64,000 nt of DNA from assembly GCA_040381015.1 (NCBI GenBank), contig JBEIIB010000006.1, forward strand, positions 1-64,000. Reading direction: 5' to 3'. Source of the DNA: Archangiaceae bacterium (GTDB lineage: Bacteria > Myxococcota > Myxococcia > Myxococcales > Myxococcaceae). Below are positions 17,674 to 37,235 of this stretch, piece after piece. Position numbers and translations under genes: made by a program. The notes below the pieces were generated by a model that saw nothing but the letters and a program-made list of their open reading frames with translations, was not told the origin of the DNA and did no database searches. Position 1 is the stretch's first letter; every line of letters starts with the position of its first letter.

Positions 17674-19070
17674 GGCGTCGGGGGCACGGCAGACTTCCCG
17701 GTCCGGCGGAAGTGGGCCTCGAGCACGGCCACCGCGCAGCTGGCGAGCCGGGTGCTGTCATCGTCGGCGCGGCTGGTGAGCATGATGGGCACCTTCGCTC
17801 CGACGACGAGCCCCGGGCCTTCGGCGTGCGCCACGAAGGCGAGCTCCTTCGCGAGCATGTTGCCCGCCTCGATGTTCGGCACCATCAACACGTTCGCCCG
17901 GCCCGCGACGAGCGAGGTGATGCCCTTGGTGCGCGCCGCCTTGAGCGACAACGCGTTGTCCATCGCGAGGGGGCCATCGACGATGCCGCCGACGATCTGC
18001 CCGCGCTCCGCCATCTTCGAGAGCACCGCTGCGTCGAGCGTCGACTGCATCGCCGGGTTGACGATCTCCACCGCCGACAGCACGCCCACCTTCGGCTGCG
18101 CGAAGCCCAGCGCCTGCGCGAGGAAGATGGCGTTCTGCACGATGTCGACCTTCTCCTCGAGGGTCGGCGCGATGTTGATGGCGGCGTCGGTGACGAGCAG
18201 TAGCTCTGGCAGCCCGGGTACGTCCATCACGAAGACGTGGCTGATGCGGCGCACGCCACGCAGCCCGCCGTCTTTGCGCACCACCGGCTTGAGCAGCTCG
18301 TCGGTGTGCAGCTTGCCCTTCATCACCGCCTGCACCACGCCCTGGTTGGCGAGCGCCACGGCCTTCTCGGCGGCACCGACCGCGCCGACGGCTCCGATCA
18401 GCTCGAGCCCATCGAGCGAGGCGTTGAGGGTCTTCGCCACGGCACGAATCTTCTCCACGTCGCCGATCAACACCGGCCGAATGAGCTCGTGCTTGAAGCC
18501 GAGCAGCGCACCGCCGAGCGAGGCTTCGTCTTCAGGGCACACCACGGCGGTGGCCAGCGGCTCCAGCGGCTCGCAGGCCTTCATCAGCCGCTCGATGTGC
18601 TGGTGGCGCACGACGGTGATCGCCGGCAGTTCGTCGTCGGACACCTCGATGCGCGTCGAGGGCGCAGTGACCTCGGCCTCGCCCACCGCGATGATTCGGC
18701 CGTCGGCCGTGGAGACCTGCGTGTCGAAGGTGACGCGGCCCTCGCTGTGCTTCGACTTCACGGTGACCTTCGCGGTGACGGTGTCACCAACCCGCGCGCG
18801 GTCGGGGAAGCGGAAGCTCTGGGCGAGGTAGCGCGTCCCGGGTCCGGGGAGCCGATTGCCCAGCACTGCCGACACCTGCGCGCCAGCCCACAACGAGGGC
18901 ACCACGGCGTCGCTCTTCCCGTCGCCGTCAGGATCGAACGTCGGCAGGACCAGCGGGTTCGAGTTCCCGCTCGCGCTCGCGAAGACCCAGAGGTCGTTCG
19001 CGGTCACCTGTCGCTGAATCGACGCGGTCGCGCCGATGACGAGCTCGTCGTACGTGGTGTTCCTGGCCAT
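17670..19070 (-). CDS. pta: bifunctional MaoC-like (hotdog) dehydratase / phosphate acetyl(butyryl)transferase
   Basis: N-terminal approx 135 aa is a MaoC-like hotdog fold. The C-terminal approx 320 aa is PTA_PTB (..GVLSAVEIVNPAMQSTLDAA..GGIVDGPLAMDNALS..VLMVPNIEAGNMLAK..). Confidence 0.85.
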   Translation of the reverse strand: MARNTTYDELVIGATASIQRQVTANDLWVFASASGNSNPLVLPTFDPDGDGKSDAVVPSLWAGAQVSAVLGNRLPGPGTRYLAQSFRFPDRARVGDTVTAKVTVKSKHSEGRVTFDTQVSTADGRIIAVGEAEVTAPSTRIEVSDDELPAITVVRHQHIERLMKACEPLEPLATAVVCPEDEASLGGALLGFKHELIRPVLIGDVEKIRAVAKTLNASLDGLELIGAVGAVGAAEKAVALANQGVVQAVMKGKLHTDELLKPVVRKDGGLRGVRRISHVFVMDVPGLPELLLVTDAAINIAPTLEEKVDIVQNAIFLAQALGFAQPKVGVLSAVEIVNPAMQSTLDAAVLSKMAERGQIVGGIVDGPLAMDNALSLKAARTKGITSLVAGRANVLMVPNIEAGNMLAKELAFVAHAEGPGLVVGAKVPIMLTSRADDDSTRLASCAVAVLEAHFRRTGKSAVPPTP

Positions 19071-19126: not shown

Positions 19127-20265
19127 TCAGAAGTCCCACGAGAACGCGCCGCCAGCCCCCGTGGGGAGCAGCCACGCCGACGCCTTCGGGCCACGGTACG
19201 ACTGGTACTTGTTCGGGTCCTCTCCGATGAGGAAGAGCACGGTCGCGGTGACGGCGCCCGCGAGGCCGAGCCCACCCGCGACGTACGAGATGGCGAGCTG
19301 GCTGTTGATCTTGTTCCGCAGGTCTTCGGCCTTCTTGCGCACCTCGGGGTCCTCCCTCTCGACGAGCGACGAGCGAAGGCCAGCGAAGGAGTTCTCCTGC
19401 GAGGTGTCGCCGTACGATGCCTGCGCCTGCCCCTGCATGATGCCGAAGGTCGCGATGCCAGCGACCGCCACACCCGCCGCGATGAACGCGCCGATGCGCA
19501 GGCCCCACTGCTTCTTCTCGTAGCCGTCGATGAAGTCGGGGCTGGGCATCAAGCGCACGGCCTCTTCCGTCACCTGGTCAGGCGCCACCTTCACCTGCTT
19601 CTGGACCGACGTGAACCCTTCCTTCTCGATGCGAAGCACGTGGGGGCCACCCGGCACCTGCAGCCGCTGCGTCATCGGCGTGGTGCCCAGCTGCGTCCCG
19701 TCGACCTTCACCACCGAGCCGTCCTCCGACGCGATGACGACGATGAAGCCCTGACGGCCGGTCAAGAGCGGCGAGATGAGCGCGGCGATGTTCTCGGTGA
19801 GCTTGCTGACGAGGTCGGCCTCGGAATTGCCCTTCACTTCACGTGAGCTGACCCGCTTGCCGGACTTGGTGTCGATGATGGAGAGGTCGAGCGTCAGGCC
19901 GGTGGTGGCCTTCTTCGCGTCGGTGAGGCGTGTGAGCCGGCCGTTCACCATGAAGTCGACGCCGAGCTGCTCGGCGACGTTGCTGTTGCAGGAGTCATCG
20001 TTGCAGCCCAGCAACTGGCGCTGCCGGTCGAGCGAGAGCAGGGCGCGCACCTGGTCCGACGTGGTGACGATGAAGAGGCCCGTGCGGTCGATCTCGGTGG
20101 CGACCGAGCCCGCCATCATCGCCGCGAGCGACTCGTTGCCGGCTGACGTCTGGAAGTCGGGCACCGCCATCTTCGGGTTGGCCTTTCCATCGGCGACGCG
20201 GGCCACGTCAGTGAGCGTCGGCGCAGCCTGGCTGAGCAGTGTGGCAAGTGTAGCGGCGAGCAGCA
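19127..20265 (-). CDS. secreted PEGA-domain protein with C-terminal TM helix
   Basis: Only the C-terminal approx 379 codons of the 978-codon ORF look genuine. They start at MLLAATLATLLSQAAP (signal peptide; ATG near 20263-20265). PEGA-like GFIVVIASEDGSVVKVDGTQLGTTPMTQRLQVPGGPHVLRIEKEGF. Hydrophobic segments near the C-terminus. The upstream 600 codons are Arg-rich antisense-type sequence. Confidence 0.65.
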
Positions 20266-20329
20266 TCGTTCGACCCCCGAATGAAGAGCAGCAACACCCT
20301 AATCCAACGCAACCCCGAACTTCAGTTCC

Positions 20330-22180
20330 TTGCGCACAGAGCCGGCACCCGAGGGTTGCGGCGCAACTCTTGCGCCGTCCACCGGGACGACGCAACGGCC
20401 GGCGGTCGGCGCGCGGCGTGCACTGCTGCCGAGGGTGCGCTCCATCGCCGACATTCTCGACGCGCACTCGGGCGATTCCACGCGGTTGGTGCAAATCCTC
20501 CTCGAGGTGCAGCGGGAGTCCGGCAACTGGTTGCCGGCAGGGGTTCTGACCGAGGTCGCCCGCGGCCTCGGCTTGCCGCGCGCGAAGGTCGAGGGCGTCG
20601 CCGGCTTCTACGCGTTCCTCCACCTGGTTCCGGTCGGCCGCTTCCGGGTGCTGGTGTCGGACAACATCACCGATCAATACGCGGGGAGCCGGGAGCTGTC
20701 GGGCGAGCTGTGTCGACGCCTGGGCGTGGAACGCGGGCACGTGCGCAGTGACGGTCGGGTCTCGGTCGACTTCACGTCGTGCACGGGACTGTGCGACCAG
20801 GCGCCAGCCCTGCTCGTCAACGGCGTCGCGGTGCCCCACGTCGTCGGAGCGCGCGTGGCCGAGGTGGTGCGGCTGATCGAAGCGAACACACCAGTCGAGT
20901 CGTGGCCCGTGGACTTGCGGCACGTCGAGGACGGCGTTCGCCTGGAAGGGCCGGTGCTGCGCGCGGTGGTGGAGCCGGGTGCGGCGCTGGAGAAGATGCT
21001 GCGGTCGTCGCCTGCCGAGGTGCTTCGCGTCCTCACCGAGTCGAAGCTGCGTGGCCGGGGCGGCGCCGGCTTCCCGGTCGCCACCAAATGGGACACCTGC
21101 CGAGAGGCGCCGGGTGACAGCGTGGTGGTGTGCAACGCCGACGAAGGAGAGCCCGGCACGTTCAAGGACCGGTTGCTCCTCGCGCATCGGGCCGACCTCG
21201 TCCTCGAGGGCATGACCATCGCCGCGCGCTTCACCGGCGCGACCGCGGGCTTCATCTACCTGCGCGGTGAGTACGCCTTCCTCGCGCCCCACCTCGAGGA
21301 CGTCATCGCTCGCCGCCGGGCTGCGAAGCTTCTCGGCACCTCCATCGCTTCGGAGCGCGGCTTCGACTTCGACGTCGAGCTGCACCTCGGCGCCGGGGCC
21401 TACGTCTGCGGCGAAGAGACCGCGCTGCTCGAGTCGCTCGAAGGCAAACGCGGCGTGCCCCGGCATCGGCCTCCGTTCCCTGTCACCCACGGTTACCTCG
21501 GCAGGCCCACCATCGTGAACAACGTCGAGACGTACGCCGACGCCGCCGTGGTGTTCGCCAACGGGCTCGACGCGTGGCGCGCGCTGGGCACCGAGCAGTC
21601 GAGCGGCTCGAAGCTCCTCTCGGTCGCTGGCGACGTCGACCGGCCCGGCATCTACGAGGTGCCGTGGGGCACGACGCTGCGTGACGTGCTGTCGCTCGCG
21701 GGCGCGCGCAACCCGAAGGCGGTGCAGGTCAGCGGGCCCTCGGGAGTGCTGGTGGGGCCGGAGCAGTTCGACCGCCGCCTCGCGTTCGAAGATCTGCCGT
21801 GCGCTGGCGCCATCGCCGTCTTCTCGGAAGCGCGCGACCTGCTCGAGGTCGTCGTGAACTACGCCCGCTTCTTCGCGCACGAGAGCTGCGGCTTCTGCAC
21901 GCCGTGCCGCGTGGGCACGCACGTCGCCGTGAGGAGCCTCGAGAAGCTGCGCGAAGGTCTCGGCTCCCAGACCGAGCTGCAGGAATTGGCGACGCTGACC
22001 CGGCTGCTGCGTGACACGTCTCACTGTGGCCTCGGGAGCACCGCACCCAACGCGTGGCGGCACTACCTCGACACGTTCGGCCTCGACGTGACCCGCCGCT
22101 TGAGCGCGACGTTTCAGCCTGCGTTCGACGTCGGCGCGGCGCTCCAGGGCGCGCGAGCCAGCCGGGGAGGCTCGACATGA
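20330..22180 (+). CDS. hoxF: NAD(P)-linked hydrogenase diaphorase subunit HoxF (NuoE-like N-terminus fused to NuoF-like FMN/NADH/4Fe-4S domain)
   Basis: NuoF motifs GAGAYVCGEETALLESLEG (FMN) and ESCGFCTPCRVG..SHCGLG (4Fe-4S). N-terminal NuoE-like segment has only the distal CxxxC (SCTGLCDQAP). The ORF opens with TTG 20330; an in-frame GTG at 20435 is an alternative start. Confidence 0.85.
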   Translation: MRTEPAPEGCGATLAPSTGTTQRPAVGARRALLPRVRSIADILDAHSGDSTRLVQILLEVQRESGNWLPAGVLTEVARGLGLPRAKVEGVAGFYAFLHLVPVGRFRVLVSDNITDQYAGSRELSGELCRRLGVERGHVRSDGRVSVDFTSCTGLCDQAPALLVNGVAVPHVVGARVAEVVRLIEANTPVESWPVDLRHVEDGVRLEGPVLRAVVEPGAALEKMLRSSPAEVLRVLTESKLRGRGGAGFPVATKWDTCREAPGDSVVVCNADEGEPGTFKDRLLLAHRADLVLEGMTIAARFTGATAGFIYLRGEYAFLAPHLEDVIARRRAAKLLGTSIASERGFDFDVELHLGAGAYVCGEETALLESLEGKRGVPRHRPPFPVTHGYLGRPTIVNNVETYADAAVVFANGLDAWRALGTEQSSGSKLLSVAGDVDRPGIYEVPWGTTLRDVLSLAGARNPKAVQVSGPSGVLVGPEQFDRRLAFEDLPCAGAIAVFSEARDLLEVVVNYARFFAHESCGFCTPCRVGTHVAVRSLEKLREGLGSQTELQELATLTRLLRDTSHCGLGSTAPNAWRHYLDTFGLDVTRRLSATFQPAFDVGAALQGARASRGGST

Positions 22181-22890
22181 GCGCGACGTTCACCCTCGAT
22201 GGAGTGGCGATTCCGTTCGAGCCCGGCCAGACGCTCATCGAGGCCGCGCGCGCGAAGGGCGTCTTCATTCCTTTCCTCTGCGCCCACCCGGAGTTCCCTG
22301 CCCACGGCTCGTGCCGCGTCTGCACCGTGTTGGTGAACGGCCGGTCCATGGCGTCGTGCACCACGAAGGCCGCCGAGGGCCTGGTCGTCGAGAGCAACAC
22401 CAGCGCGCTCGAGGGCGACCGACGGGCGCTGGTGCAGATGCTGTTCGTCGAGGGCAACCACTTCTGCCCCGGGTGCGAGAAGTCGGGAAGCTGCACGCTC
22501 CAGTCGCTCGGCACCGAGCTTGGTGTGACGTCGGCCGGGTTCGCCCACGAGTCGCCGACCCGCCCCGTCGACGCGTCACACCCCGACATCCTCCTCGACT
22601 TCAACCGCTGCATCCTCTGCGAGCTCTGTGTTCGCGCCTCGGCCGACGTCGACCACAAGGACGTCTTTGCGCTCTCGGGCCGCGGGCTGAGCAAGCACCT
22701 CATCGTGAACGCCGAGTCGGGCCGCCTCGCCGACACCGGCATGTCCACCACCGACAAGGCGATGACGGTGTGCCCGGTGGGCGTCATCTTGAGGAAGCGG
22801 GTTGGCTTTCACACGCCCATCGGTGAACGCCCGCACGACCTCGAGTCGCCCCGTCAGCACGTGGAGCACCCGAAGGGCAGGGCGCCATGA
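22177..22890 (+). CDS. hoxU: hydrogenase diaphorase subunit HoxU (NuoG-N-terminal-like 2Fe-2S / 4Fe-4S protein)
   Basis: MSATFTLDGVAIPF..GSCRVCTV (2Fe-2S ferredoxin-like), HFCPGCEKSGSC, CILCELCVRA (4Fe-4S). ATG overlaps the hoxF stop (ATGA). GGGGAGG RBS. Confidence 0.85.
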   Translation: MSATFTLDGVAIPFEPGQTLIEAARAKGVFIPFLCAHPEFPAHGSCRVCTVLVNGRSMASCTTKAAEGLVVESNTSALEGDRRALVQMLFVEGNHFCPGCEKSGSCTLQSLGTELGVTSAGFAHESPTRPVDASHPDILLDFNRCILCELCVRASADVDHKDVFALSGRGLSKHLIVNAESGRLADTGMSTTDKAMTVCPVGVILRKRVGFHTPIGERPHDLESPRQHVEHPKGRAP

Positions 22891-23426
22891 CGAACAGAGT
22901 GCGCATCGCGACCACGTCACTCGCGGGCTGCTTCGGCTGTCACATGTCGCTGCTCGACATCGACGAGCGCATCGTGCCGTTGCTCGCGCGCGTGCAGCTC
23001 GACCGCTCGCCATTGACGGACCAGAAGCACGCCGGGCCGTGCGCGGTCGGGCTCGTCGAGGGTGGCGTCTGCAACGAAGACAACCTGCGGGTGCTGCAGG
23101 AGTTCCGTGCGCAATGCACGGTGCTGGTGGCGGTCGGCGCGTGCGCCATCAACGGGGGGCTGCCCGCCCAGCGAAACCACTTCGAGGTCGGCGAGCTGCT
23201 GCGGCAGGTCTATTGCGAGGAACCCGGGCTCGCGCGCCGTGGCGTTCCCAACGACCCCGAGCTGCCGCTGCTGTTCGACAAGGTCCGGCCGCTCCACGAG
23301 CTGGTGAAGATCGACTACTTCATCCCCGGGGGCCCGCCGCCCGCCGAGGCGTTCTGGACGTTCTTGAACGACCTGTTGGACGGGCGCGAGCCACGGCTGC
23401 CGCCGGGAGCAATCCGGTATGACTGA
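22887..23426 (+). CDS. hoxY: [NiFe] hydrogenase small subunit HoxY (NuoB-like)
   Basis: SLAGCFGCHMSLLD..CAVGLVEGGVCN..AVGACAINGG are proximal-cluster Cys motifs of group 3 hydrogenase small subunits. ATGA overlap with hoxU. Confidence 0.9.
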   Translation: MTNRVRIATTSLAGCFGCHMSLLDIDERIVPLLARVQLDRSPLTDQKHAGPCAVGLVEGGVCNEDNLRVLQEFRAQCTVLVAVGACAINGGLPAQRNHFEVGELLRQVYCEEPGLARRGVPNDPELPLLFDKVRPLHELVKIDYFIPGGPPPAEAFWTFLNDLLDGREPRLPPGAIRYD

Positions 23427-24855
23427 CACGCTCCGAAGAATCGCCATCGACCCCGTCTCTCGCGTCGAGGGTCACGGGAAGGTGACGTTGCTCCTCGACG
23501 ACGCCGGCCACGTGCACGAGGCGCGGCTGCACATCGTCGAGTTCCGCGGCTTCGAGGCCTTCATCGTCGGACGGCCCTATTGGGAAGTGCCCGTCGTCGT
23601 GCAGCGCCTCTGCGGCATCTGCCCCGTCTCGCACAACCTCTGCGCGTCGAAGGCCCTCGACGCCGTCGTCGGCGCAGTCCCTCCTCCCTCCGCCGTGAAG
23701 CTGCGCCGCCTCATGCACGCGGGCCAGATGCTCCAGTCGCACGCGCTGCACTTCTTCCACCTCGCCTCGCCCGACCTGTTGTTCGGCTTCGACAGCGACC
23801 CCTCGAAGCGCAACCTGATGGGCCTCGTCGAGTCCCACCCCGAGATCGCCAAACAGGGCGTGATGCTGCGCAAGTTCGGCCAGCAGGTGCTCGAGGCCGT
23901 CTACGGCAAGCGCATTCATGGGACGGGCGCCATTCCAGGTGGCGTGAACAAACACCTGGCGCTCGCGGATCGCGACACGTTCCTCGCGCAGCTCCCACAG
24001 GTGAAGACGTGGGCGCTCGAGGCCGTCGCGCTCGCGCGGCAGCTCACCGAGTCGAACATGGCGCGGCACGTGGGCTTCGGCAGCGTGCCGTCGAACCTCC
24101 TGGGCCTGGTCGCCGCCGATGGCTCGCTCGACCTCTACGACGGCGCGCTGCGCGCGAAGGACGCCGAAGGCCGCGTGCTCTTCGGTGGCTTCGACGGGTC
24201 GACGTACCGGCAGCTGATTCGAGAAGAGGTGCGGCCGTGGTCGTACATGAAGTTCCCCTATCTCTCGGCCATGGGCCCCGAGGCAGGTTGGTACAAGGTA
24301 GGCCCGCTCGCGCGGCTGCAGGTGTGCGACCGCCTGTCGACGCCCCTGGCCGAGGCGGCGCGGCGGGACTTCATCGCCAGCTCGCCGAAGACGATTCACG
24401 CGCCGCTCGCGTCACACTGGGCGCGGCTCGTGGAGCTGTTGCACTCGGCCGAGGAGATCGAGCTCCTGCTCCATGACTCGGACCTGCTGCACGGCGACCT
24501 CGTCTCGACGGGGCAACGCCAACGCGAGGGCGTCGGTGTCATCGAGGCGCCGCGCGGCACGCTCATTCACCACTACGAGGTGGACGAGGACGACCTGGTG
24601 ACGCGCTGCAACCTCATCGTGTCCACCACCCACAACAACCAGGCCATGAACGAGGCGATTCGCTCGGTCGCGCGCCAGTACCTCGATGGGCGCAGCGTGA
24701 CCGAAGGCCTGCTGAACCACCTCGAAGTGGCGGTGCGGGCGTTCGACCCGTGCCTGTCGTGCGCGACCCACGCCATGGGCCAGATGCCGCTCGAGGTGAC
24801 GCTCGTCGACGCCGCGGGCGCCGTCGTCGACGTGATGCGCAGGGACGCGTCATGA
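23419..24855 (+). CDS. hoxH: [NiFe] hydrogenase large subunit HoxH
   Basis: N-terminal RLCGICPVSH (RxCGxC). C-terminal DPCLSCATH (DPCxxCxxH) Ni-Fe ligands. Confidence 0.9.
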   Translation: MTDTLRRIAIDPVSRVEGHGKVTLLLDDAGHVHEARLHIVEFRGFEAFIVGRPYWEVPVVVQRLCGICPVSHNLCASKALDAVVGAVPPPSAVKLRRLMHAGQMLQSHALHFFHLASPDLLFGFDSDPSKRNLMGLVESHPEIAKQGVMLRKFGQQVLEAVYGKRIHGTGAIPGGVNKHLALADRDTFLAQLPQVKTWALEAVALARQLTESNMARHVGFGSVPSNLLGLVAADGSLDLYDGALRAKDAEGRVLFGGFDGSTYRQLIREEVRPWSYMKFPYLSAMGPEAGWYKVGPLARLQVCDRLSTPLAEAARRDFIASSPKTIHAPLASHWARLVELLHSAEEIELLLHDSDLLHGDLVSTGQRQREGVGVIEAPRGTLIHHYEVDEDDLVTRCNLIVSTTHNNQAMNEAIRSVARQYLDGRSVTEGLLNHLEVAVRAFDPCLSCATHAMGQMPLEVTLVDAAGAVVDVMRRDAS

Positions 24856-25298
24856 AGTCACGCGCGCTCGTCTTCGGCTGGGGCAACCCCTCTCGTGGTG
24901 ATGATGGGCTCGGGCCCGCGTTCGTCGGCGAGGCCAAGCGGAAGCCTGGCGTGGAGCTCCTCGTCGACTACCAGCTGCAACCGGAGCATGCCCTCGACCT
25001 CGTCGGCCGCGACGAGGTCCTCTTCGTCGACGCCAGCACCACCACTCCCGAGCCCTTCGAAGTGTTCGAGGTCAGCCCGGGGCCGGCGGTGACGTTCACC
25101 ACCCACCACCTGTCGCCTGGCGCGCTGCTGGCCATCTTCGAGCGCATCACGGGAAGGCCCGCGCCGCGCTCGAGGGTTCTGGCGATTCGCGGCTGGTCGT
25201 TCGCGCTGGGGGAAGTGCTGAGCGAGCGGGGGCGGGCCAACCTCGACGCGGCCCTCGCGTGGTGGAACACGGAGCACCACGAGCGGCTCGCGCACTGA
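24852..25298 (+). CDS. hoxW: hydrogenase maturation endopeptidase HoxW/HycI family
   Basis: MKSRALVFGWGNPSRGDDGLGPAF matches the GxGNxxxxDDGxG signature. ATGA overlap with hoxH. Confidence 0.85.
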   Translation: MKSRALVFGWGNPSRGDDGLGPAFVGEAKRKPGVELLVDYQLQPEHALDLVGRDEVLFVDASTTTPEPFEVFEVSPGPAVTFTTHHLSPGALLAIFERITGRPAPRSRVLAIRGWSFALGEVLSERGRANLDAALAWWNTEHHERLAH

Positions 25299-25308
25299 GG
25301 CGATGACG

Positions 25309-26130
25309 CTACCTGCGACGCGCGCGCACGAACGGCAGCGTCGCCACGAAGCAGAGCGCGAGCAGCAGCACGATGGCCGCGCCCGACGGCGCGTTCAGTC
25401 GCGTCGAGACCAGCACCCCGCCGACGCCGCTCACGGTCGCCACGATGACGCTGGCCCACGTCAGGCCCGCCACGCTGCGCGCCACGTTCCGCCCGGCAGC
25501 CGCGGGCACGAGCAGCATCGCCTCGACCATCAACGCGCCCAACACCTTCACCGACGCCACGATGACGAGGGTGAGCAGGGTCACCAGGCCGTACTCGAGT
25601 GCGGCCGATGGGAGTCGCCGGGCCGCGGCGGTGCGGACGTCGAGCGCGTCGACGAGCAGCGCGTTGTGCCATCTCGCCAGGACGGCGAGGACCACGGCCA
25701 GCGTCACGCCCAGGACGGTGAGGTCGACCCGATTCACCGTGAGCACCGAGCCGAACATCACCGCTTCGAGTTGGTGCACGTTGAAGCGCTTCGTCACGAC
25801 GACGAGGAGCAGCACGCCGAGCCCGAGCGTGAAGGCGAGCAGCACGCCGACGAGCGTGTCGGACGGCAACGACGAGCGACGCCGAACGAAGACGAGCCCG
25901 ACGCCACACAGCAGCGAGAAGCCGAGCACGCTCGCCCAGGGTGCGTCGACCGGCTCGCCCAGCAACACGCCGAGCGAGACGCCCGTGAGCACCGCCTGGC
26001 CGAGCGCCGCCGAGAAGAAGGCGAGCCGCCTCGTCATCACCAGCGGGGACAACAGCCCGAGCATCGGCGCGGCGAGCAGCACCGCCAGGAGCGCGCGCTG
26101 CACGAAGTCGAGCGAGAGGGCCTGCGTCAT
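25309..26130 (-). CDS. metal ABC transporter permease (ZnuB/MntB, ABC-3 family)
   Basis: 273 aa, 8-9 TM helices, typical ABC-3 permease composition. Start overlaps the upstream ATPase stop. Confidence 0.85.
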   Translation of the reverse strand: MTQALSLDFVQRALLAVLLAAPMLGLLSPLVMTRRLAFFSAALGQAVLTGVSLGVLLGEPVDAPWASVLGFSLLCGVGLVFVRRRSSLPSDTLVGVLLAFTLGLGVLLLVVVTKRFNVHQLEAVMFGSVLTVNRVDLTVLGVTLAVVLAVLARWHNALLVDALDVRTAAARRLPSAALEYGLVTLLTLVIVASVKVLGALMVEAMLLVPAAAGRNVARSVAGLTWASVIVATVSGVGGVLVSTRLNAPSGAAIVLLLALCFVATLPFVRARRR

Positions 26131-26741
26131 GCCGCGCTCCCGGACAGCGAGGCGGTGCGCGTGGCGAGCTGCCCGACCGCCTCGAGGTCATGCGAGATCC
26201 ACAGGGTCGCGAGGCCCGTCGTTCGAGCGTCCCTCAGCGTCGTGAGCAGCCGGGCTCTGGCCGCGGCGTCGAGGCCGGCTTCGGGTTCGTCGAGGAGCAA
26301 CAGCGAAGGCTTCGTCGCCAGCGCGTCGGCGAGCAGCACGCGGCGCAGCTCACCTCCCGACAACTCGGACAGTCGAGCGCCGAGGAGGGCCGAGCACCCT
26401 GTGAGCTCGAGGGCCTGCTCCACGGCCCGCCGCGTGGCACGAGGGACGCCCAGCCACGAGGGCCGTGAGGTGCGTGAGGCGGCGAGGAACTCGAGCACCG
26501 TGACGGGCGTGGTCGCGAGCCCTTCGAAGCGCTGCGGCACGATGGCGAGCGTCTGGTTCGTGGCCAGCTCCAGCGTGCCTGTGAATGGCACCAGCCCCAG
26601 CACGCAGTCGAGGAAGGTCGACTTCCCGCTGCCGTTGGGACCGACGAGCGCGAGCACCTCACCACGAGACAGCTCGAGCGACAGCGGCCGTAACCGGCCC
26701 GGCACCGTGACCGCGCCTGCCACGAGGAGCCGCTCACTCAT
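26127..26741 (-). CDS. metal ABC transporter ATP-binding protein (ZnuC-like)
   Basis: Walker A GPNGSGKST. LSGGELRRV signature. LLLLDEPEAGLD Walker B. Genuine start MSERLL at 26739-26741. The longer ORF extension is antisense-like. Confidence 0.85.
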   Translation of the reverse strand: MSERLLVAGAVTVPGRLRPLSLELSRGEVLALVGPNGSGKSTFLDCVLGLVPFTGTLELATNQTLAIVPQRFEGLATTPVTVLEFLAASRTSRPSWLGVPRATRRAVEQALELTGCSALLGARLSELSGGELRRVLLADALATKPSLLLLDEPEAGLDAAARARLLTTLRDARTTGLATLWISHDLEAVGQLATRTASLSGSAA

Positions 26742-27571
26742 CGCGTCATCACCTGGACGATGGCGTCGAGGTTTCGCTGCAGCTCTGCTTCGAAGCGCGT
26801 TGGCGTGAAGTCGCCCGTCGCGACGTGGCTCACCACCACCACGCGCGCCCCGGCCTCTTCGAGCACCTTCGCCATCGCTGGTGGAAACGTCTCTTCCGAG
26901 AACACGACGCGCACCTGTCTGGCCTTCAGGCGCTGCACGACGTCGCCGAGCTCCGAGGCCGAGGGGAGCAGTCCATGCGCGGGCTCGACGACGCCGGCCA
27001 GCTCGAGGCCGAGCTCCTGGAGCAGGTAGGCGTAGCCGTCGTGCACCGTGACGACGCGTCGCTGCTTGACGGTCGAGAGCGCTGACACGGTGGCCGCCCG
27101 CATCGCCCGCAGCCGCCTCGCGAAGGCCGCGGCGTTTCGCTCGAGCGCCGGTCTCCACTCGGGTCGCAGCTGCGCCAGGGCTCTCGCCAACGTGTACGAC
27201 TGCAGCGCCCCGTTCCCCATCGACAGGAAAGTGTGCGAGTTGGGTGCGGTGCCGCCGTGAGTTAGCAACAGCGGCGTGCCTTCGTTCATCCTGATTCGGG
27301 TCAGCTTCTCGTTGCCGGCGGCGCGCACCATCTCGTCGAGGAAGGCGTCGTGGCCCAGGCCATTCTCCACCAGCACGTCGAGCGTCTTCAGCGTGGCGAC
27401 GTCTTGTGGCCGCGGCTGGTAGCTCCCGATGTCGACGTCGCCTGGCACCACCGCGACCAGCTCGACCGGCAGCCCCTCGGTCACCCGCGCCGCCCAAGAG
27501 TAATAGGGGTGGAGCGTCACGCCCAGCTTCAGCGGCGCCGCGGCCACGATGAGGCAGAGGAGCGCGCTCAT
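26738..27571 (-). CDS. metal ABC transporter periplasmic substrate-binding protein (TroA/ZnuA superfamily)
   Basis: Starts MSALLCLIVAAAPLKLG (signal). TroA-like fold motifs (..VVVSHVATGDFTPT.., ..HDGYAYLLQELGLE..). Confidence 0.8.
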   Translation of the reverse strand: MSALLCLIVAAAPLKLGVTLHPYYSWAARVTEGLPVELVAVVPGDVDIGSYQPRPQDVATLKTLDVLVENGLGHDAFLDEMVRAAGNEKLTRIRMNEGTPLLLTHGGTAPNSHTFLSMGNGALQSYTLARALAQLRPEWRPALERNAAAFARRLRAMRAATVSALSTVKQRRVVTVHDGYAYLLQELGLELAGVVEPAHGLLPSASELGDVVQRLKARQVRVVFSEETFPPAMAKVLEEAGARVVVVSHVATGDFTPTRFEAELQRNLDAIVQVMTR

Positions 27572-27815
27572 GGCCTCGAGCCCCCCGTGCCCCCGGGCTC
27601 CGGCAACGGCGCCCCGTCGACGCTCGCCCCGGGAATTCGACGGGACGCGGCGCACGCGAGCAGGCCAGACGAGAGAGCCGCGAGGTGGCGCATCGAGAAC
27701 GGCGTTATGCCGCAACTGCCCCGCGATGCCACCCCAGTGACAGGCGCGACACTGACGGACCGTCGCGAGGTCACCGTAGGAGACGCGCGGCGACCTTGGG
27801 GTACACTGTTGGCTC

Positions 27816-29471
27816 GTGACTGTTCTCGAGCCCGGCACCACATTTGCCGACAAGTACCTGATCGACGGAGTGCTCGGCAAAGGCGGCATGGGCGCGGTGT
27901 ATTCGGCGACCAACCAGTCCATCGGCCGGCGCGTCGCCATCAAGGTGCTCGTCGCGGACCTCGCCGATCGCGATGACATCAAGGCGCGCTTCTCGCTCGA
28001 GGCGCGCGCTGCGGCCGTCATCAACCACCCCGGCATCGTCGACGTCCTCGACATGGGTGAGACCGAAGACGGCGAGCCCTTCATCGTCATGGAGCACCTC
28101 GAGGGGGCGACGCTGAAGGCCGTCTTCAGGAAGCACGGCGTCTTCGCACCGGAGCAGGCGGTCGGCGTCCTGGTGCCCCTCCTCGACGCGCTCGCCGCCG
28201 CCCACCAGGCAAACGTCATTCATCGAGACATCAAGCCCGCGAACGTCTTCCTCTGCACGAAGCCGCAGCGACTGGTGAAGCTGCTCGACTTCGGCATCTC
28301 CCGTTTCGGGCAGAGCACCGGACTGACGCACTCGGGGACGGCCGTCGGCACGCCGAAGTACATGGCTCCGGAGCAGGTGCTCGGCGAGAAGACCATCGGG
28401 CCCTCGGCCGACCTCTACTCCGTCGGCGCACTGCTCTACGAGCTGCTCGGTGGCCGCGCGCCGTACGACGCCGACAGCGACATCGCGACGCTCGCCAAGC
28501 TCCTCAAGGAAGAGCACCAGCCGTTGATGCAACTTCGCCCCGACCTGCCCGCGCAGTTGTGTGACTTCGTCGATGCGCTGCTCGTCAAAGAGCCGGAGCG
28601 CCGCGCGAAGGACGCCGCGAAGGTGAAGGAATCACTCCTCGCCCTCGTGAAGGCGGGCGAGCTCTCCAGCCTGTTCGACATCGCGCAGGACGCAGCGGTG
28701 CGCAGTCAGTCAGGCGGGACACCTCGCCCTCCGACGGGGCCCGCGCGACTGCCTGCCACGTCTCCCGGCCGCCGGAACTCCGTCAACCGCATGCCCGCCG
28801 CTCAGGTGACGCTCGACGACGACGCGCCAGCGACCCGACCCTCTGCGAAGCGGGGCCCCGCCAGGACTCCGCGGACGCCGCCTCCCGTCGTCCTGAACCC
28901 GACGGCCCCGGCGCTCGAGCCGGTGGGAGACCCGCCGCGACGCTCGGGTGTCATGGCGGCCGCCGTCATCGTGACCGTCGGCCTCGTCGGCGGTGCGAGC
29001 CTCTTCCGCGTGCTCGGCAAGACGGGCCAGGCTCCAGCCGCGCCGGTGGTGGTCGAGACGCCCCCGAAGCCGTCGACGCCGCAGGACAGCGCGCCCGTGA
29101 AGACGCCCGCGAACGCCCTGGGGACTCCCATCGTGGTCACCCTGGCGGCTGACCCTGCGAGCGCGCGCTTCGAGGTCGACGGCGAGAAGCTCGACGGCAA
29201 CCCCGTCACGCTGACGCGCGAGCAGGGCAGCGAGGCGTCCATCGTCACCACTGCGCAGGGGTTCGAGCCGAGGTCCTTTCTCCTCGTCTTCACCGAGAGC
29301 CGCGAAGAACGCGTCACGTTGACCCTCGTCGCTGCCGTCGCACCGGCGACCGCGGACCCGGCTGATGGAAATCAGCCTCGGAACACCAGGAGCGGCACCC
29401 GGCAGCCGCCGCCGCCCATCGGCAAGAAGAGCGGCAAGCTGACCGTCGACGAGACGAACCCGTACGAGTGA
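27816..29471 (+). CDS. Ser/Thr protein kinase with Pro-rich linker, TM helix and extracytoplasmic C-terminal domain
   Basis: GKGGMGAVY..AIK (ATP site), HRDIKPANVF (catalytic loop), DFGIS, GTPKYMAPE. Hydrophobic segment VMAAAVIVTVGLVGG. Confidence 0.9.
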   Translation: MTVLEPGTTFADKYLIDGVLGKGGMGAVYSATNQSIGRRVAIKVLVADLADRDDIKARFSLEARAAAVINHPGIVDVLDMGETEDGEPFIVMEHLEGATLKAVFRKHGVFAPEQAVGVLVPLLDALAAAHQANVIHRDIKPANVFLCTKPQRLVKLLDFGISRFGQSTGLTHSGTAVGTPKYMAPEQVLGEKTIGPSADLYSVGALLYELLGGRAPYDADSDIATLAKLLKEEHQPLMQLRPDLPAQLCDFVDALLVKEPERRAKDAAKVKESLLALVKAGELSSLFDIAQDAAVRSQSGGTPRPPTGPARLPATSPGRRNSVNRMPAAQVTLDDDAPATRPSAKRGPARTPRTPPPVVLNPTAPALEPVGDPPRRSGVMAAAVIVTVGLVGGASLFRVLGKTGQAPAAPVVVETPPKPSTPQDSAPVKTPANALGTPIVVTLAADPASARFEVDGEKLDGNPVTLTREQGSEASIVTTAQGFEPRSFLLVFTESREERVTLTLVAAVAPATADPADGNQPRNTRSGTRQPPPPIGKKSGKLTVDETNPYE

Positions 29472-29498
29472 GCGAAGACTTCGGCTAGCCTCTCGCCC

Positions 29499-30662
29499 GT
29501 GCACTGGACCCGTTGGCTGCTCGCGCTGGCTCTGCTGTCGTCGCCGCTCGCATTCGCACAGGCCGCCGCTGCGAAGAAAGAGGCCGCGGCGAAGAAGAAC
29601 CAGGCCGCCGACCACTTCAAGAAGGGCGTCGCGCTGTTCAAGGAGGGTGACTTCGCCTCGGCGCTCGCCGAGTTCCGCGCTGCCTACCAGGCCGTGCCCA
29701 GCTTCGAGGTGCTCTACAATCTCGGCCTCACCGAACGTCGGCTCTTCAAGTACGGCCAGGCCGTGAAGACCCTCAACCGCTACCTCGACGAGGGCGGCAA
29801 GAAGGTACCGGCCGAGCGCCGCGAGAGCGTCGAGAGCGAGCTGTCGCAGATTCGCGCGCTCACCTCGAAGATCACCGTGACCGTCGAAGGCGCTCCGGCG
29901 AAGGTGTTCGTCGACGGCGAAGAGGTGGGGACCACGCCCCTCGCCGACCCGATTCTGTTGGGGCCCGGCAAGCACACCATTCGCGCGACGCGCGACGGCG
30001 AACCCGACTCCGAAGAGACCTTCGAGCTCGCGTCGGGGTCGACGAAGGACGTCACGCTCGCGCTCCGGTCGGAGGCCACGGGGCCCGTGGCGATCACCAT
30101 CGAGACCGACCCGCGCGACGCCGTGCTGATGCTCGATGGGAAGCTCGCCGGTCTCTCGCCCACGAAGGTCGAGCTGAAGCCGGGGTCTCACGAGCTCATC
30201 GCCGAGCTCGACGGCTTTCAATCCACGCGCACCGACGTGCTGGTCGAGGCCGGCAGGCCCCGCACCGTGAAGCTCAAGCTGGTGGCAGGAGGCGCCGCGA
30301 CCCCTGGTGGTGGGTCGCGAGGCCGTTTCCCGGTGGCTGGGCTCATTCTCTTCGGCGGCGGCGTGGTCGCTGGTGGCCTCGCGGTGCTCTTCGCGGTGCA
30401 GTCCACCAACGCGTCACGGCAGGTCTCCGAGTTCTACCGCATCGGCGGGCCGTGGGACCCGATGCGCGTCGCGGTGGAGCAGGGCGGCAAGCGCGACCAG
30501 ACCCTCGCTGGCGTCTTCATCGGCGTCTCGGTCGCGGCGATTGCAGGTGGCGTCATCGCGACCCTCGTCAGCCTCGCGAGCCCCACCGAGGAGCCCGAGG
30601 CGCACCTCTTCATCTTTCCATCCTCCAACGGAGCGCTCGCGACATGGTCAACCCGCTTCTGA
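29499..30662 (+). CDS. secreted TPR-like / tandem PEGA-domain protein with C-terminal TM
   Basis: Signal peptide MHWTRWLLALALLSSPLAFA. TPR-like N-terminus. Two PEGA-like units (..VTVEGAPAKVFVDGEEVGTTPL..GPGKHTIRATRDG..; ..ITIETDPRDAVLMLDGKLAGLSPTKVELKPGSHELIAELDGF). Confidence 0.7.
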   Translation: MHWTRWLLALALLSSPLAFAQAAAAKKEAAAKKNQAADHFKKGVALFKEGDFASALAEFRAAYQAVPSFEVLYNLGLTERRLFKYGQAVKTLNRYLDEGGKKVPAERRESVESELSQIRALTSKITVTVEGAPAKVFVDGEEVGTTPLADPILLGPGKHTIRATRDGEPDSEETFELASGSTKDVTLALRSEATGPVAITIETDPRDAVLMLDGKLAGLSPTKVELKPGSHELIAELDGFQSTRTDVLVEAGRPRTVKLKLVAGGAATPGGGSRGRFPVAGLILFGGGVVAGGLAVLFAVQSTNASRQVSEFYRIGGPWDPMRVAVEQGGKRDQTLAGVFIGVSVAAIAGGVIATLVSLASPTEEPEAHLFIFPSSNGALATWSTRF

Positions 30663-32224
30663 AGCGAGCGCACGCGTTGGCGTTCGGCGCCGCGCTGGTG
30701 CTCGGCACGGCCGCGGGGTGCTCGTTCTATTCGCCCACCGTCGTGGACTGCGCCATCACGTGTGGTGAGAGCGGCCCCTGCCCCGGAGGGACGAAGTGTC
30801 GCGATGGGTTCTGCCGCCTCGAGTCGTCGATGGGCGACTGTGCCTGTCAGTTGGGCGACACGCGCGAGTGCGGAGGTGGCCGCGGCGAGTGCAAGAAGGG
30901 CACTGAGGTCTGCACCTCTGGGCGCGTGTGGAGCGGCGTCTGTGTTGGCGAGGGCCGCCCGTCGGTCGAGGTGTGCAACAACAGGGACGACGACTGCGAT
31001 GGGCTGGTCGACGATGAGGTGACGGACCCTCAAGCGTGCTCGCTGACCCTGGGCGTCTGCGCAGGGAAGAAGAACCGCTGCGAGTCTGGAGCGCAGCTGG
31101 TGTGTGAGGTCTCCGACTACGGGTCTGCCTATCAAGTGGCCGAGGCGCGCTGCGATTCGCTCGACAACGACTGCGACGGCTTCACCGACATCCGCGCGCT
31201 GTCGGTGCTGACCAACGAAGCCTCGCCGACGGCTCCGTTCCGGCTGCTCGCGATGCCGCAGGGCTTCGCGCTGGTCTACGAGCGGCGGCCCGCTGCTGGA
31301 ATGCCCGAGCTCATCGTCGCTCGTTACGACGAGGCCATCGTCTTTCAACGCAGCCACGTCGTGGCGCGGCCGGCCCCGGCGCAGTTCTGGGCGCGCTCGC
31401 TCGGTCAGTCCGTCTTCGTGGCGACGACGAGCGGAGGCGGCGTCGGGCTGACGCGGGTGAACACGCTGCTGGCCGGCGACTCGGGCCTCGAGGGCTTCGA
31501 GCCGCTGGTCGACGCGGGCTTCTCGAGGGGGCTGCGCCTCGGCGTGGGCGAGCAGGCGGTCGGCACGTTCCTCGCGGAAGAAGACCTGGTGGCCCGCATG
31601 CTCATCTGGCAACTCGACGGCGGGCTCTCGCAGGTGCGCGACGTGAACTCCGGGCCCGGCGTTCCAGCGATCGTGAACCTCAACTCCGTCAACGTGAGCG
31701 ACCGTGGGCACTTCGTCATCTACAGCGCTGACGAGGACGCGGATGACGGTGGTGTGCGGCAGCTCACCCGGCTGGACGACGGCCGCGTCTGGGCCCCGCC
31801 GTATGCCGGCGATCTCGATGCCGAGCTCCACGAGTGGGATGCAGGCGTGTCGTCGACCTACGCCTACTCCGACACCAGCACGTCGTTGTCTGGGGTGTAC
31901 TTCCTCCCCGACCTGACGAGGGGGCTCACAGAAGTGGCGGCGGCAGGGTCCTTCCTTTCGCAGCAGTGGGGCGCGGCGGCGTCGTTCCGAACGCCAGCAG
32001 GCGACCTGACCCTGGCGATGCAGGAGCGTGTACCCGGTGGTGGGCAGCAGATCGTGTTGGGTACGTCGGTTCCGGTCGGTGACACCTTCGGCTTCCGGCT
32101 TCGCAACCTCGATGGCGGAGCGGGTGTGCCGGCGGTGGTGGCCTCGTCGGTGGAGCAGGGGTGGCTGTTCGTCGGCTGGCGCGACATGACCTCGATTCGG
32201 GTGCGGAAGGTCTGCGCTCCCTGA
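30644..32224 (+). CDS. lipoprotein with myxobacterial cysteine-rich repeats
   Basis: MVNPLLKRAHALAFGAALVLGTAAGC (lipobox). Repeated C..G.C / DDCDG patterns (CNNRDDDCDGLVDDE; CDSLDNDCDGFTD). The ORF is open from 30452; start taken at ATG 30644. Confidence 0.65.
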   Translation: MVNPLLKRAHALAFGAALVLGTAAGCSFYSPTVVDCAITCGESGPCPGGTKCRDGFCRLESSMGDCACQLGDTRECGGGRGECKKGTEVCTSGRVWSGVCVGEGRPSVEVCNNRDDDCDGLVDDEVTDPQACSLTLGVCAGKKNRCESGAQLVCEVSDYGSAYQVAEARCDSLDNDCDGFTDIRALSVLTNEASPTAPFRLLAMPQGFALVYERRPAAGMPELIVARYDEAIVFQRSHVVARPAPAQFWARSLGQSVFVATTSGGGVGLTRVNTLLAGDSGLEGFEPLVDAGFSRGLRLGVGEQAVGTFLAEEDLVARMLIWQLDGGLSQVRDVNSGPGVPAIVNLNSVNVSDRGHFVIYSADEDADDGGVRQLTRLDDGRVWAPPYAGDLDAELHEWDAGVSSTYAYSDTSTSLSGVYFLPDLTRGLTEVAAAGSFLSQQWGAAASFRTPAGDLTLAMQERVPGGGQQIVLGTSVPVGDTFGFRLRNLDGGAGVPAVVASSVEQGWLFVGWRDMTSIRVRKVCAP

Positions 32225-36676: not shown

Positions 36677-36870
36677 CGGGGCTCCTGGGCGAAAGGAACC
36701 CCCGATGTACCCCGGGCCCTCGACCGCGGGGGACGGTTTGAGGTGACGCGCCGCACCAGCGGCAGGAGGCGCTCGACGATGGTCGCGCCTGGCGCGGATT
36801 CCGCCCCGATGGTGACGGTGAACGCGCAGCGCATGGGGGAGGCACGCGCAGGCCGTTCGTCCCGCAGGTC

Positions 36871-37235
36871 GTGTTGCCGTCGACAGTGCCGCCTGACGCA
36901 GACCGCGCTCTTCGATGCCCGGCGTGCGCGCCGGTGAACGAGCCGCGCAGCTCGCCTGCGATCGTCACGCTCGTGCGTCGCGGAGACGAGGCGCTGCTCG
37001 CCAACTCGGGCCGGTTCCCCGTTGCGTTCTTCAGCAGGCTGGCCGGCTTTCCGAGGTGGGAGGGTCGCTCGAAGAGACGCTGGTGCGCGAGGTCCACGAA
37101 GAGGTGGGCCAGGTGCGGCTCGGAGTTCGTCTCGTCATCGAGCGCTTCTCGGAAACCCGGTCGCCGTTCGCGCCTTCTCGAGCATTCGACGGAGCGGCGC
37201 CTCATCAGCGCGAGCCAGCGCGTCGTCCCAGGTGA
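36871..37235 (+). pseudogene. NudC-like (NADH pyrophosphatase-type) NUDIX gene relic, frameshifted and N-terminally truncated
   Basis: Frame of 36871 reads CPACAPVNEPRSSPAIVTLVRRGDEALLANSGRFPVAFFSRLAGF (compare E. coli NudC CPKCG..YPR..P.IIV.IRR.D.ILLA......G....LAGF). The Nudix box continues in the +1 frame (SEVGGSLEETLVREVHEEVGQVRLG) after a CC run near 37050. Restoring one base gives LAGFPEVGGSLEETLVREVHEEVG, a canonical LAGFvE.GEsLE.A..REv.EE.G box. No room for the NudC N-terminal domain upstream. Confidence 0.45.

Follow-up and report, generated by a model that had tools for sequence, protein, structure and literature searches.

We have analysed a stretch of 64,000 bp (from here on, the window) that makes up the start of contig JBEIIB010000006.1 in the assembly GCA_040381015.1, an Archangiaceae bacterium, and have focussed on the hydrogenase locus found at positions 20330-25298. 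Here five co-directional open reading frames (ORFs) follow each other head to tail on the + strand, corresponding to hoxF, hoxU, hoxY, hoxH and hoxW, that is, the subunits of a [NiFe] hydrogenase with its NAD-linked diaphorase and a dedicated endopeptidase. The features of the locus are as follows (FMN, flavin mononucleotide; the evidence is given in brackets).

20267-20434, + strand: presumed hox promoter and leader, in the intergenic region between a PEGA-domain gene and hoxF
20435-22180, + strand: hoxF, 581 residues, NAD(H)/FMN diaphorase subunit, a NuoE-like plus NuoF-like fusion (Pfam, 5XF9_A)
20435-20989, + strand: NuoE-like N-terminal domain of HoxF, thioredoxin-like ferredoxin fold with a degenerate [2Fe-2S] site (alignment to NuoE homologs)
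within 20657-20674, + strand: HoxF Ser75 and Asp80, ligand positions 1 and 2 (NuoE alignments)
within 20777-20794, + strand: HoxF Cys116 and Cys120, ligand positions 3 and 4 (NuoE alignments)
22177-22890, + strand: hoxU, 237 residues, Fe-S subunit like the N-terminus of NuoG, with one [2Fe-2S] and two [4Fe-4S] sites (Pfam, 5XF9_B)
22887-23426, + strand: hoxY, 179 residues, short small subunit, proximal [4Fe-4S] only (Oxidored_q6, 5XF9_C)
23331-23333, + strand: hoxY codon 149, GGC (Gly) against TGC (Cys) in the relatives (alignments of relatives)
23419-24855, + strand: hoxH, 478 residues, [NiFe] large subunit (NiFeSe_Hases, 5XF9_D)
23605-23634, + strand: N-terminal Ni-Fe motif of HoxH, RLCGICPVSH, residues 63-72 (fits RxCGxCxxxH)
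24745-24771, + strand: C-terminal Ni-Fe motif of HoxH, DPCLSCATH, residues 443-451 (fits DPCxxCxxH)
24772-24852, + strand: 27-residue C-terminal extension of HoxH, AMGQMPLEVTLVDAAGAVVDVMRRDAS, presumably cleaved off by HoxW
24852-25298, + strand: hoxW, 148 residues, HoxH-specific maturation endopeptidase (TIGR00072, synteny)

Two starts are available for hoxF, a TTG at 20330 and a GTG at 20435. The latter is more likely, because the Pfam match begins only at residue 40 of the long ORF and because the myxobacterial orthologs (71-79% identical) are 575-581 residues long, and with it the operon spans 20435-25298 (+). A preliminary description of this DNA, made from the sequence, had reported ATGA overlaps at every junction. 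This holds for the 4-nt overlaps of hoxF/hoxU, hoxU/hoxY and hoxH/hoxW, but hoxY and hoxH overlap by 8 nt (ATGACTGA), so that the wording was slightly loose. Neither frameshifts nor stops interrupt any of the five genes, and the operon has the same G+C as the genome (66-74% over the whole window). The PEGA-domain gene upstream is divergent, with its ATG at 20266 on the - strand. In a scan of positions 20100-25500 no sigma-70-like consensus or other promoter-like site was found, and the sole terminator-like match, a yield below chance expectation, lies inside hoxY and on the wrong strand. Two other sequences are ca. 99% identical to the window, JBBAQZ010000018.1 (locus L001 in our numbering, a metagenome-assembled genome (MAG) labelled Myxococcaceae bacterium EUL_206) and an ENA metagenome contig (L082).

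The identity of the operon as a hydrogenase plus its endopeptidase, as first described, is borne out by the Pfam domains, by the matches to the solved soluble hydrogenase (SH) 5XF9 and by a HoxW score above the TIGR00072 cut-off. The best solved matches of HoxF, HoxU, HoxY and HoxH were chains A to D of 5XF9, all by wide margins. For HoxH the ranking was 5XF9_D (630 bits), the HydABCSL large subunit 7T2R_D (507), MvhA (407), sulfhydrogenase (SHI, ca. 120) and Frh (ca. 110-118). The partners of the hydrogenase module, a NuoF-like subunit (FMN, NAD(H), [4Fe-4S]) and one resembling the N-terminus of NuoG, are co-encoded, as judged from Pfam, NCBIfam, motifs and the matches to 5XF9_A and 5XF9_B. 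These partners, the proximity of HoxH to 5XF9_D and its 48% identity to the HoxH of Cupriavidus necator all point to group 3d, in line with the initial assignment. We consider it very probable that the locus encodes a cytoplasmic heterotetrameric HoxFUYH enzyme of the HoxE-less SH subtype of group 3d, accompanied by its protease HoxW, matured by Hyp proteins encoded elsewhere and, with less certainty, acting to vent NADH. It is, in other words, an uncultured myxobacterial addition to a kind of hydrogenase that has already been characterised both structurally and biochemically.

The large subunit and the electron-transfer subunit HoxU conform to this type. HoxH was recognised by the Pfam family NiFeSe_Hases and, in the precomputed annotation of the gene call on a 99%-identical contig, by PF27537 (HoxH). 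His451 of HoxH aligns to the last residue of the mature 5XF9_D chain, also a His, and the 27-residue tail, for which C. necator HoxH has a homologous counterpart, lies beyond this point. HoxU (254 bits against 5XF9_B) contains the Pfam domains Fer2_4, NADH-G_4Fe-4S_3 and Fer4, and every Cys/His motif is aligned and intact. In CILCELCVRAS a Ser is found where a second ferredoxin cluster needs Cys(-Pro), the same form as the CILCGLCVRAS of 5XF9_B, and by its motifs HoxU is without the additional [4Fe-4S] cluster of the cyanobacterial HoxU. HoxW scored 72.7 bits against TIGR00072 (hydrogenase maturation protease; cut-off 47.45), is 36% identical to the protease encoded after hoxH in C. necator, and its gene follows hoxH in nearly all related loci. 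Its assignment rests on this model and on synteny, since a search of solved structures with HoxW gave no match at E<0.01.

The small subunit departs from those of its relatives. HoxY (230 bits against 5XF9_C) is otherwise typical in fold and length and has the cluster ligands Cys15, Cys18 and Cys86, but the fourth position is Gly149, which leaves three of the four Cys. The protein reads IPGGPPP, and PGCPP was found in all of the 93 relatives checked; in the alignment this Cys corresponds to the PGCPP of 5XF9_C and to Cys179 of C. necator. Among 76 aligned HoxY sequences 75 have Cys at the fourth ligand, the window being the sole exception (Gly). Cys149 is retained in L001 and L082, both 99% identical, and PGCPP was also present in 18 out of 18 further relatives (82-99% identity). 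At the DNA level the change is a T>G directly after GGG (GGGTGCC in the relatives, GGGGGCC in the window). A T>G after a run of G is a typical context of short-read substitution errors. Thus, two options are left for C149G, an error of sequencing or a defect particular to this strain, and if it is real the enzyme of this strain would probably be crippled. The operon had been described as complete; the gene set of five ORFs with their domains does stand, but the word needs the caveat that hoxY as written is without its fourth [4Fe-4S] Cys.

One explanation would be that this strain is losing the operon, with C149G as a true loss-of-function mutation that has left the hydrogenase a non-functional relic. 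We regard this as possible, albeit with well under even chances. It would fit with Cys149 being an established [4Fe-4S] ligand position, invariant in every other sequence examined, with the same HoxY sequence being found, exactly, in a deposited contig of 72.6 kb, and with the lack of hyp genes nearby. Nor is the window riddled with errors, an idea that we tried and rejected: along 12.9 kb it carries 49 unique substitutions (34 synonymous and 14 nonsynonymous), compared to 53 in the sister strain. However, the intact reading frames of all five hox genes do not suggest decay, and the only other amino acid changes unique to the window within the operon are two conservative ones, D155E in HoxF and E11A in HoxU. 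The sequence context of the T>G is also that of a read error, and the consensus of a MAG may fix an erroneous or minority base. A comparison of the window to L001 gave 0 nonsynonymous versus 5 synonymous differences in hoxH, and 3 versus 7 in hoxF, and because of these proportions we consider the operon to be under purifying selection. In practical terms, base 23331 is a warning for anyone who would clone this enzyme as a biocatalyst or infer the H2 metabolism of the organism from this genome.

Another candidate that we discarded was a ligand swap in HoxY, with Cys110 taking the place of Cys149 (the window differs from L001 by D110C together with C149G). L082 has both Cys110 and Cys149, and the few betaproteobacterial HoxY that have a Cys in that column retain PGCPP. 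Two HoxY alleles occur among these 99%-identical strains, F99/C110/N122/I142 (window and L082) and V/D/D/V (L001), that is, four amino acid changes within 44 residues, including a codon (GAC/TGC) that differs at two bases.

The N-terminal domain of HoxF was the other feature singled out in the preliminary description, which had seen it as Cys-depleted, with only the distal CxxxC kept (SCTGLCDQAP) and with Ser and Asp at the positions of the first two ligands (VLVSDNITDQ). HoxF as a whole gave 486 bits against 5XF9_A (residues 21-576) and contains the Pfam domains 2Fe-2S_thioredx, Complex1_51K, SLBB and NADH_4Fe-4S. Its FMN and NAD motifs are intact (GRGGAGFP and CNADEGEPGTFKDR), as is the motif of the N3-type cluster (ESCGFCTPC...SHCGLG). 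The NuoE-like domain corresponds to PF01257 (residues 40-181 of the long ORF), and its four ligand positions were scored by alignment to the cluster-bearing NuoE-like chains 7P5H_C, 9BOV_C and 8A6T_C (all C-C-C-C). This alignment, which had been set beforehand as the test, gave S-D-C-C: two of the four Cys ligands are replaced, and the description of the domain was accurate. What does not survive is the oddity that it implied, on two counts. Within the protein's own clade S-D-C-C is the norm, being found in 118 out of 121 HoxF (the query and its 120 best homologs in the database), with S-D-C-G in the other 3. In addition, a Cys-depleted HoxF together with the absence of hoxE matches the published definition of the SH subtype. 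The HoxF of Ralstonia eutropha is an Nqo1-Nqo2 fusion without cluster N1a in which most of the Cys are absent (Lauterbach et al., PMC3189943), and the HoxFUYH enzymes of Hydrogenophilus thermoluteolus, Rhodococcus opacus and R. eutropha are devoid of HoxE, of the HoxF [2Fe-2S] and of one HoxU [4Fe-4S] (PMC11647496). The absence of the HoxF [2Fe-2S] cluster and of hoxE are therefore standard traits of the HoxE-less SH subtype. When sampled as 50%-identity representatives, the SH-like HoxF displayed varied degenerate patterns (SDCC, SDCS, SDCG, CDCS, NACS, VDCS and others), with C-C-C-C retained in the more distant NuoE-NuoF fusions. By analogy with these enzymes, the domain would be a cluster-less structural remnant of the N1a module of complex I.

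There is an alternative in which the S-D-C-C quartet is a functional site, holding a [2Fe-2S] cluster or another metal through two Cys, a Ser and an Asp, or, with its CxxxC, serving as a redox switch close to the FMN, and so adding a regulatory role, or one protective against reactive oxygen species (ROS), that is missing in the Cupriavidus-type enzyme. Ser and Asp are able to ligate Fe-S clusters in other proteins. The four positions are also near-invariant in the 121 sequences, in spite of a mean identity of only 60% over the N-terminal domain, and the motifs that contain them, SDNxTD and TSCTGxCDQxP, exceed every other conserved block of the domain in length. If this were true, the site might tune reactivation or ROS release, and the subclade would differ in mechanism from the enzymes of Cupriavidus and Hydrogenophilus. 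However, among the 50%-identity representatives with Ser and Asp at the first two positions the fourth one varies, with 10 SDCC (including the window), 3 SDCS and 2 SDCG, plus one each of SDCA, SDSA and SDAC; since C, G, S or A can be found there, the fourth ligand appears to be dispensable. Besides, H. thermoluteolus (V-D-C-S), whose HoxF is described as without this cluster (PMC11647496), and C. necator (C-A-C-S) conserve both the third Cys and the loop xGxxDQxPA equally well, so conservation of the loop does not require a cluster. There is no spectroscopic report of an extra cluster for any HoxE-less SH either. Because of the variable fourth position and of the loop kept in cluster-less enzymes we rate a functional S-D-C-C site as quite improbable, and prefer to see the domain as a structural remnant.

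A group 3c (Mvh/Vhu-like) or electron-bifurcating HydABCSL-type enzyme, in place of a simple NAD-linked 3d one, is hardly credible: the best NCBIfam models were indeed VhuA for HoxH (408 bits) and VhuG for HoxY (124 bits), and the bifurcating Acetomicrobium HydABCSL provided the second-best solved large subunit (7T2R_D), but those two scores are about half and about a quarter of the curated cut-offs (800 and 450, respectively), no HoxH-specific NCBIfam model was among the matches, 5XF9 scored above 7T2R and Mvh for every subunit, the partners are NuoF/NuoG-like and not MvhD/Hdr (Pfam scans of the ORFs detected no Hdr or MvhD domain in the window), a separate HydC/NuoE subunit with a cluster is missing, and HoxU, at 237 residues, is shorter than HydA (692). 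On the sub-cut-off Vhu scores, the PDB ranking and the partner subunits, we have rejected group 3c in favour of 3d.

A close functional analogue of the HoxFUYH enzyme of the window is HpSH, from Hydrogenophaga pseudoflava, which likewise consists of HoxFUYH with HoxW and has neither HoxE nor HoxI (PMC12809855). The N-terminal domain of its HoxF has the same motifs as that of the window (VLFSDNITD, SCTGLCDQGPALLVN and SCTGLCDQGPA, as taken from a machine-read supplementary alignment in which some letters were dropped; PMC12809855). HpSH has been purified and is active, with a kcat of 137 per s with NAD+ and 2.1 per s with NADP+, and forms H2 from NADH without O2 (PMC12809855). It differs in its betaproteobacterial host and in the PGCPP context of its HoxY, where the window has Gly in place of the Cys. 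The NAD+-reducing SH of H. thermoluteolus (5XF9/5XFA) is also like the window in being without HoxE, in the fused, cluster-less NuoE-like domain of HoxF and in the clusters of HoxU. However, its ligand positions are V-D-C-S (5XF9_A) and not S-D-C-C, and it comes from a thermophile, whereas the window falls in a separate and large subclade, mostly betaproteobacterial plus myxobacterial. The C. necator (R. eutropha) H16 operon of pHG1, hoxFUYHWI-hypA2B2F2, shares the order hoxF-U-Y-H-W, with identities of 42% for HoxF and HoxU, 48% for HoxY and HoxH and 36% for HoxW. It has, in contrast, HoxI and adjacent hyp genes, neither of which is present in the window, as well as a C-A-C-S ligand pattern in HoxF and an N-terminus of HoxY that is 30 residues longer. 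The HoxEFUYH enzymes of cyanobacteria and purple sulfur bacteria (Synechocystis, Allochromatium, Thiocapsa Hox1) share with the window the group 3d catalytic core HoxYH and a NuoF/NuoG-like diaphorase. They possess a HoxE [2Fe-2S], a HoxF [2Fe-2S], an extra HoxU [4Fe-4S] and a reaction with ferredoxin (PMC7363133, PMC11647496), none of which is apparent for the window, and with no hoxE and with Ser and Asp at HoxF ligands 1 and 2 the window is not of this type. For enzymology the locus is of little weight, as its subunit set, the loss of the N1a-type cluster and the missing HoxE all belong to the textbook picture of NAD+-reducing SH, and a close analogue has already been purified.

The whole 64 kb was searched for hyp genes by tblastn with the E. 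coli Hyp proteins (E<1e-4) and, along with Pfam scans of the other ORFs (screened by G+C at third codon positions), this revealed no homolog of HypA-F. Searches of the same kind, tblastn plus Pfam scans, detected no second NuoE/NuoF-like sequence over the 64 kb that could be hoxE. Both absences had been noted initially and are confirmed at this scale. Among the betaproteobacterial relatives that do have hyp genes beside hoxFUYHW we observed that HypF aligns to just ca. 330-390 residues of the 750-residue E. coli HypF (loci L005, L010, L011, L014, L016, L024, L031, L035 and L041), which suggests that this subclade of hydrogenases goes together with a truncated HypF.

By analogy with the 5XF9, Cupriavidus and Hydrogenophaga enzymes, the Ni-Fe site of HoxH would cleave or produce H2, and electrons would run from there through the single [4Fe-4S] of HoxY to the two [4Fe-4S] and one [2Fe-2S] of HoxU, and from these to the one [4Fe-4S] and the FMN of HoxF and to NAD+/NADH. 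NADP(H) would probably be a poor substrate. HoxW would trim the 27-residue tail of HoxH after Ni insertion, with the Hyp maturation proteins presumably encoded elsewhere in the genome. As to physiology, a hint comes from two genes found on the other side of the PEGA-domain gene.

16588-17673, - strand: ackA (Pfam Acetate_kinase)
17670-19070, - strand: pta, a gene for a MaoC-PTA fusion phosphotransacetylase (Pfam PTA_PTB)

Homologs of this pair (47-53% identity) are also found divergent and upstream of hoxF in loci L003, L043, L054, L056, L068, L069, L072 and L073, the linkage being seen in Azospira, Dechloromonas, Rhodocyclaceae and others; in Dechloromonas hankyongensis (L054) a polyhydroxyalkanoate synthase gene lies a few kb downstream of hox. 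In "Candidatus Accumulibacter" the hox genes are induced anaerobically and H2 appears after addition of acetate, for which a role in regenerating NAD+ has been proposed (PMC8407102). The Accumulibacter Hox is of the HoxFUYH type and comes from the Rhodocyclaceae, the family that supplies many of the closest non-myxobacterial homologs. Because of the pta-ackA linkage and of this precedent, a redox-valve role, in which NADH is disposed of as H2 under O2 limitation, appears the most plausible one. The enzyme might then mainly vent excess NADH as H2 in an O2-limited, acetate-forming metabolism, a suggestion that we make with less certainty than the enzyme assignment, and H2 uptake to give NADH would be possible whenever H2 is available. 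For the window's enzyme this physiology comes from context and analogy. The occurrence of such a hydrogenase, along with the linked pta-ackA genes, suggests that these Myxococcaceae/Archangiaceae are able to use H2, or to get rid of reductant as H2, when O2 is limiting.

Several points weigh against the assignment as an NADH-venting SH. No hyp genes are found within 64 kb, while many betaproteobacterial relatives carry an adjacent hypABFCDE. The Gly149 of HoxY is not shared by any of the 93 relatives checked, and an enzyme of this sequence may fail to form its electron relay. The linkage with pta-ackA occurs in only ca. 9 of ca. 80 non-myxobacterial loci, and in the window itself the PEGA-domain gene separates pta-ackA from hox. 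That the Accumulibacter enzyme belongs to exactly the same subclade is only assumed, and the direction of catalysis, the cofactor preference and the behaviour towards O2 cannot be read from sequence. Unlike Accumulibacter, the Myxococcaceae are not, to our knowledge, polyphosphate accumulators.

The order hoxFUYHW is kept in ca. 80 loci, with HoxH identities of 63-83%. HoxY proteins 82-99% identical to that of the window are found in MAGs labelled Myxococcaceae, Archangium, Archangiaceae and Myxococcales. Beyond these there are ca. 75 loci with a HoxH 63-68% identical, mostly from Betaproteobacteria (among them Dechloromonas, Thauera, Azospira, Rhodoferax, Gallionella, Sideroxydans and Methylotenera), nearly all with the order hoxF-U-Y-H-W and none with hoxE. 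In a neighbour-joining tree (unbootstrapped and rooted on C. necator) the Myxococcaceae form a clade that is a deep sister to the betaproteobacterial radiation and is not nested inside it. The myxobacterial origin proposed for this DNA agrees with the neighbours of the operon, which include a major-vault-protein-like gene, PEGA-domain proteins, Ser/Thr kinases, sigma-54 activators and Kelch proteins. Members of the Myxococcaceae/Archangiaceae are usually regarded as strict aerobes. The presence of an SH-type hydrogenase, under purifying selection, in several uncultured populations of both groups has a modest ecological value.

Some of the neighbouring genes deserve mention. The vault-like ORF (14278-16497, - strand, ca. 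740 residues) matches the shoulder domain of the eukaryotic major vault protein (PF11978, 105 bits) as well as a vault repeat, adjoins ackA and is conserved in three related strains (L001, L082 and L083). On the other side of the operon, the genes of a metal ABC transporter of the ZnuABC type (ABC-3 permease, ATPase and ZnuA-like binding protein; 25309-28219, - strand) run towards hoxW, and just 10 bases separate the convergent stop codons. We set aside the idea that it imports nickel, since the transporter family is of the Zn/Mn type and its linkage to hox was seen in near-identical strains only. Two segments of the window are absent from the L001 contig, one of ca. 0.33 kb (ca. 36808-37135) and one of ca. 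2.75 kb (ca. 29244-31994), the latter holding a PEGA/TPR gene (29472-30662). Finally, the PEGA/DUF3280 protein encoded between pta and hoxF (19127-20266, - strand) has a hypervariable segment at residues ca. 279-308, where a dense cluster of ca. 17 substitutions in ca. 30 residues sets L082 apart from the window and L001, with flanking genes that are ca. 99% identical.

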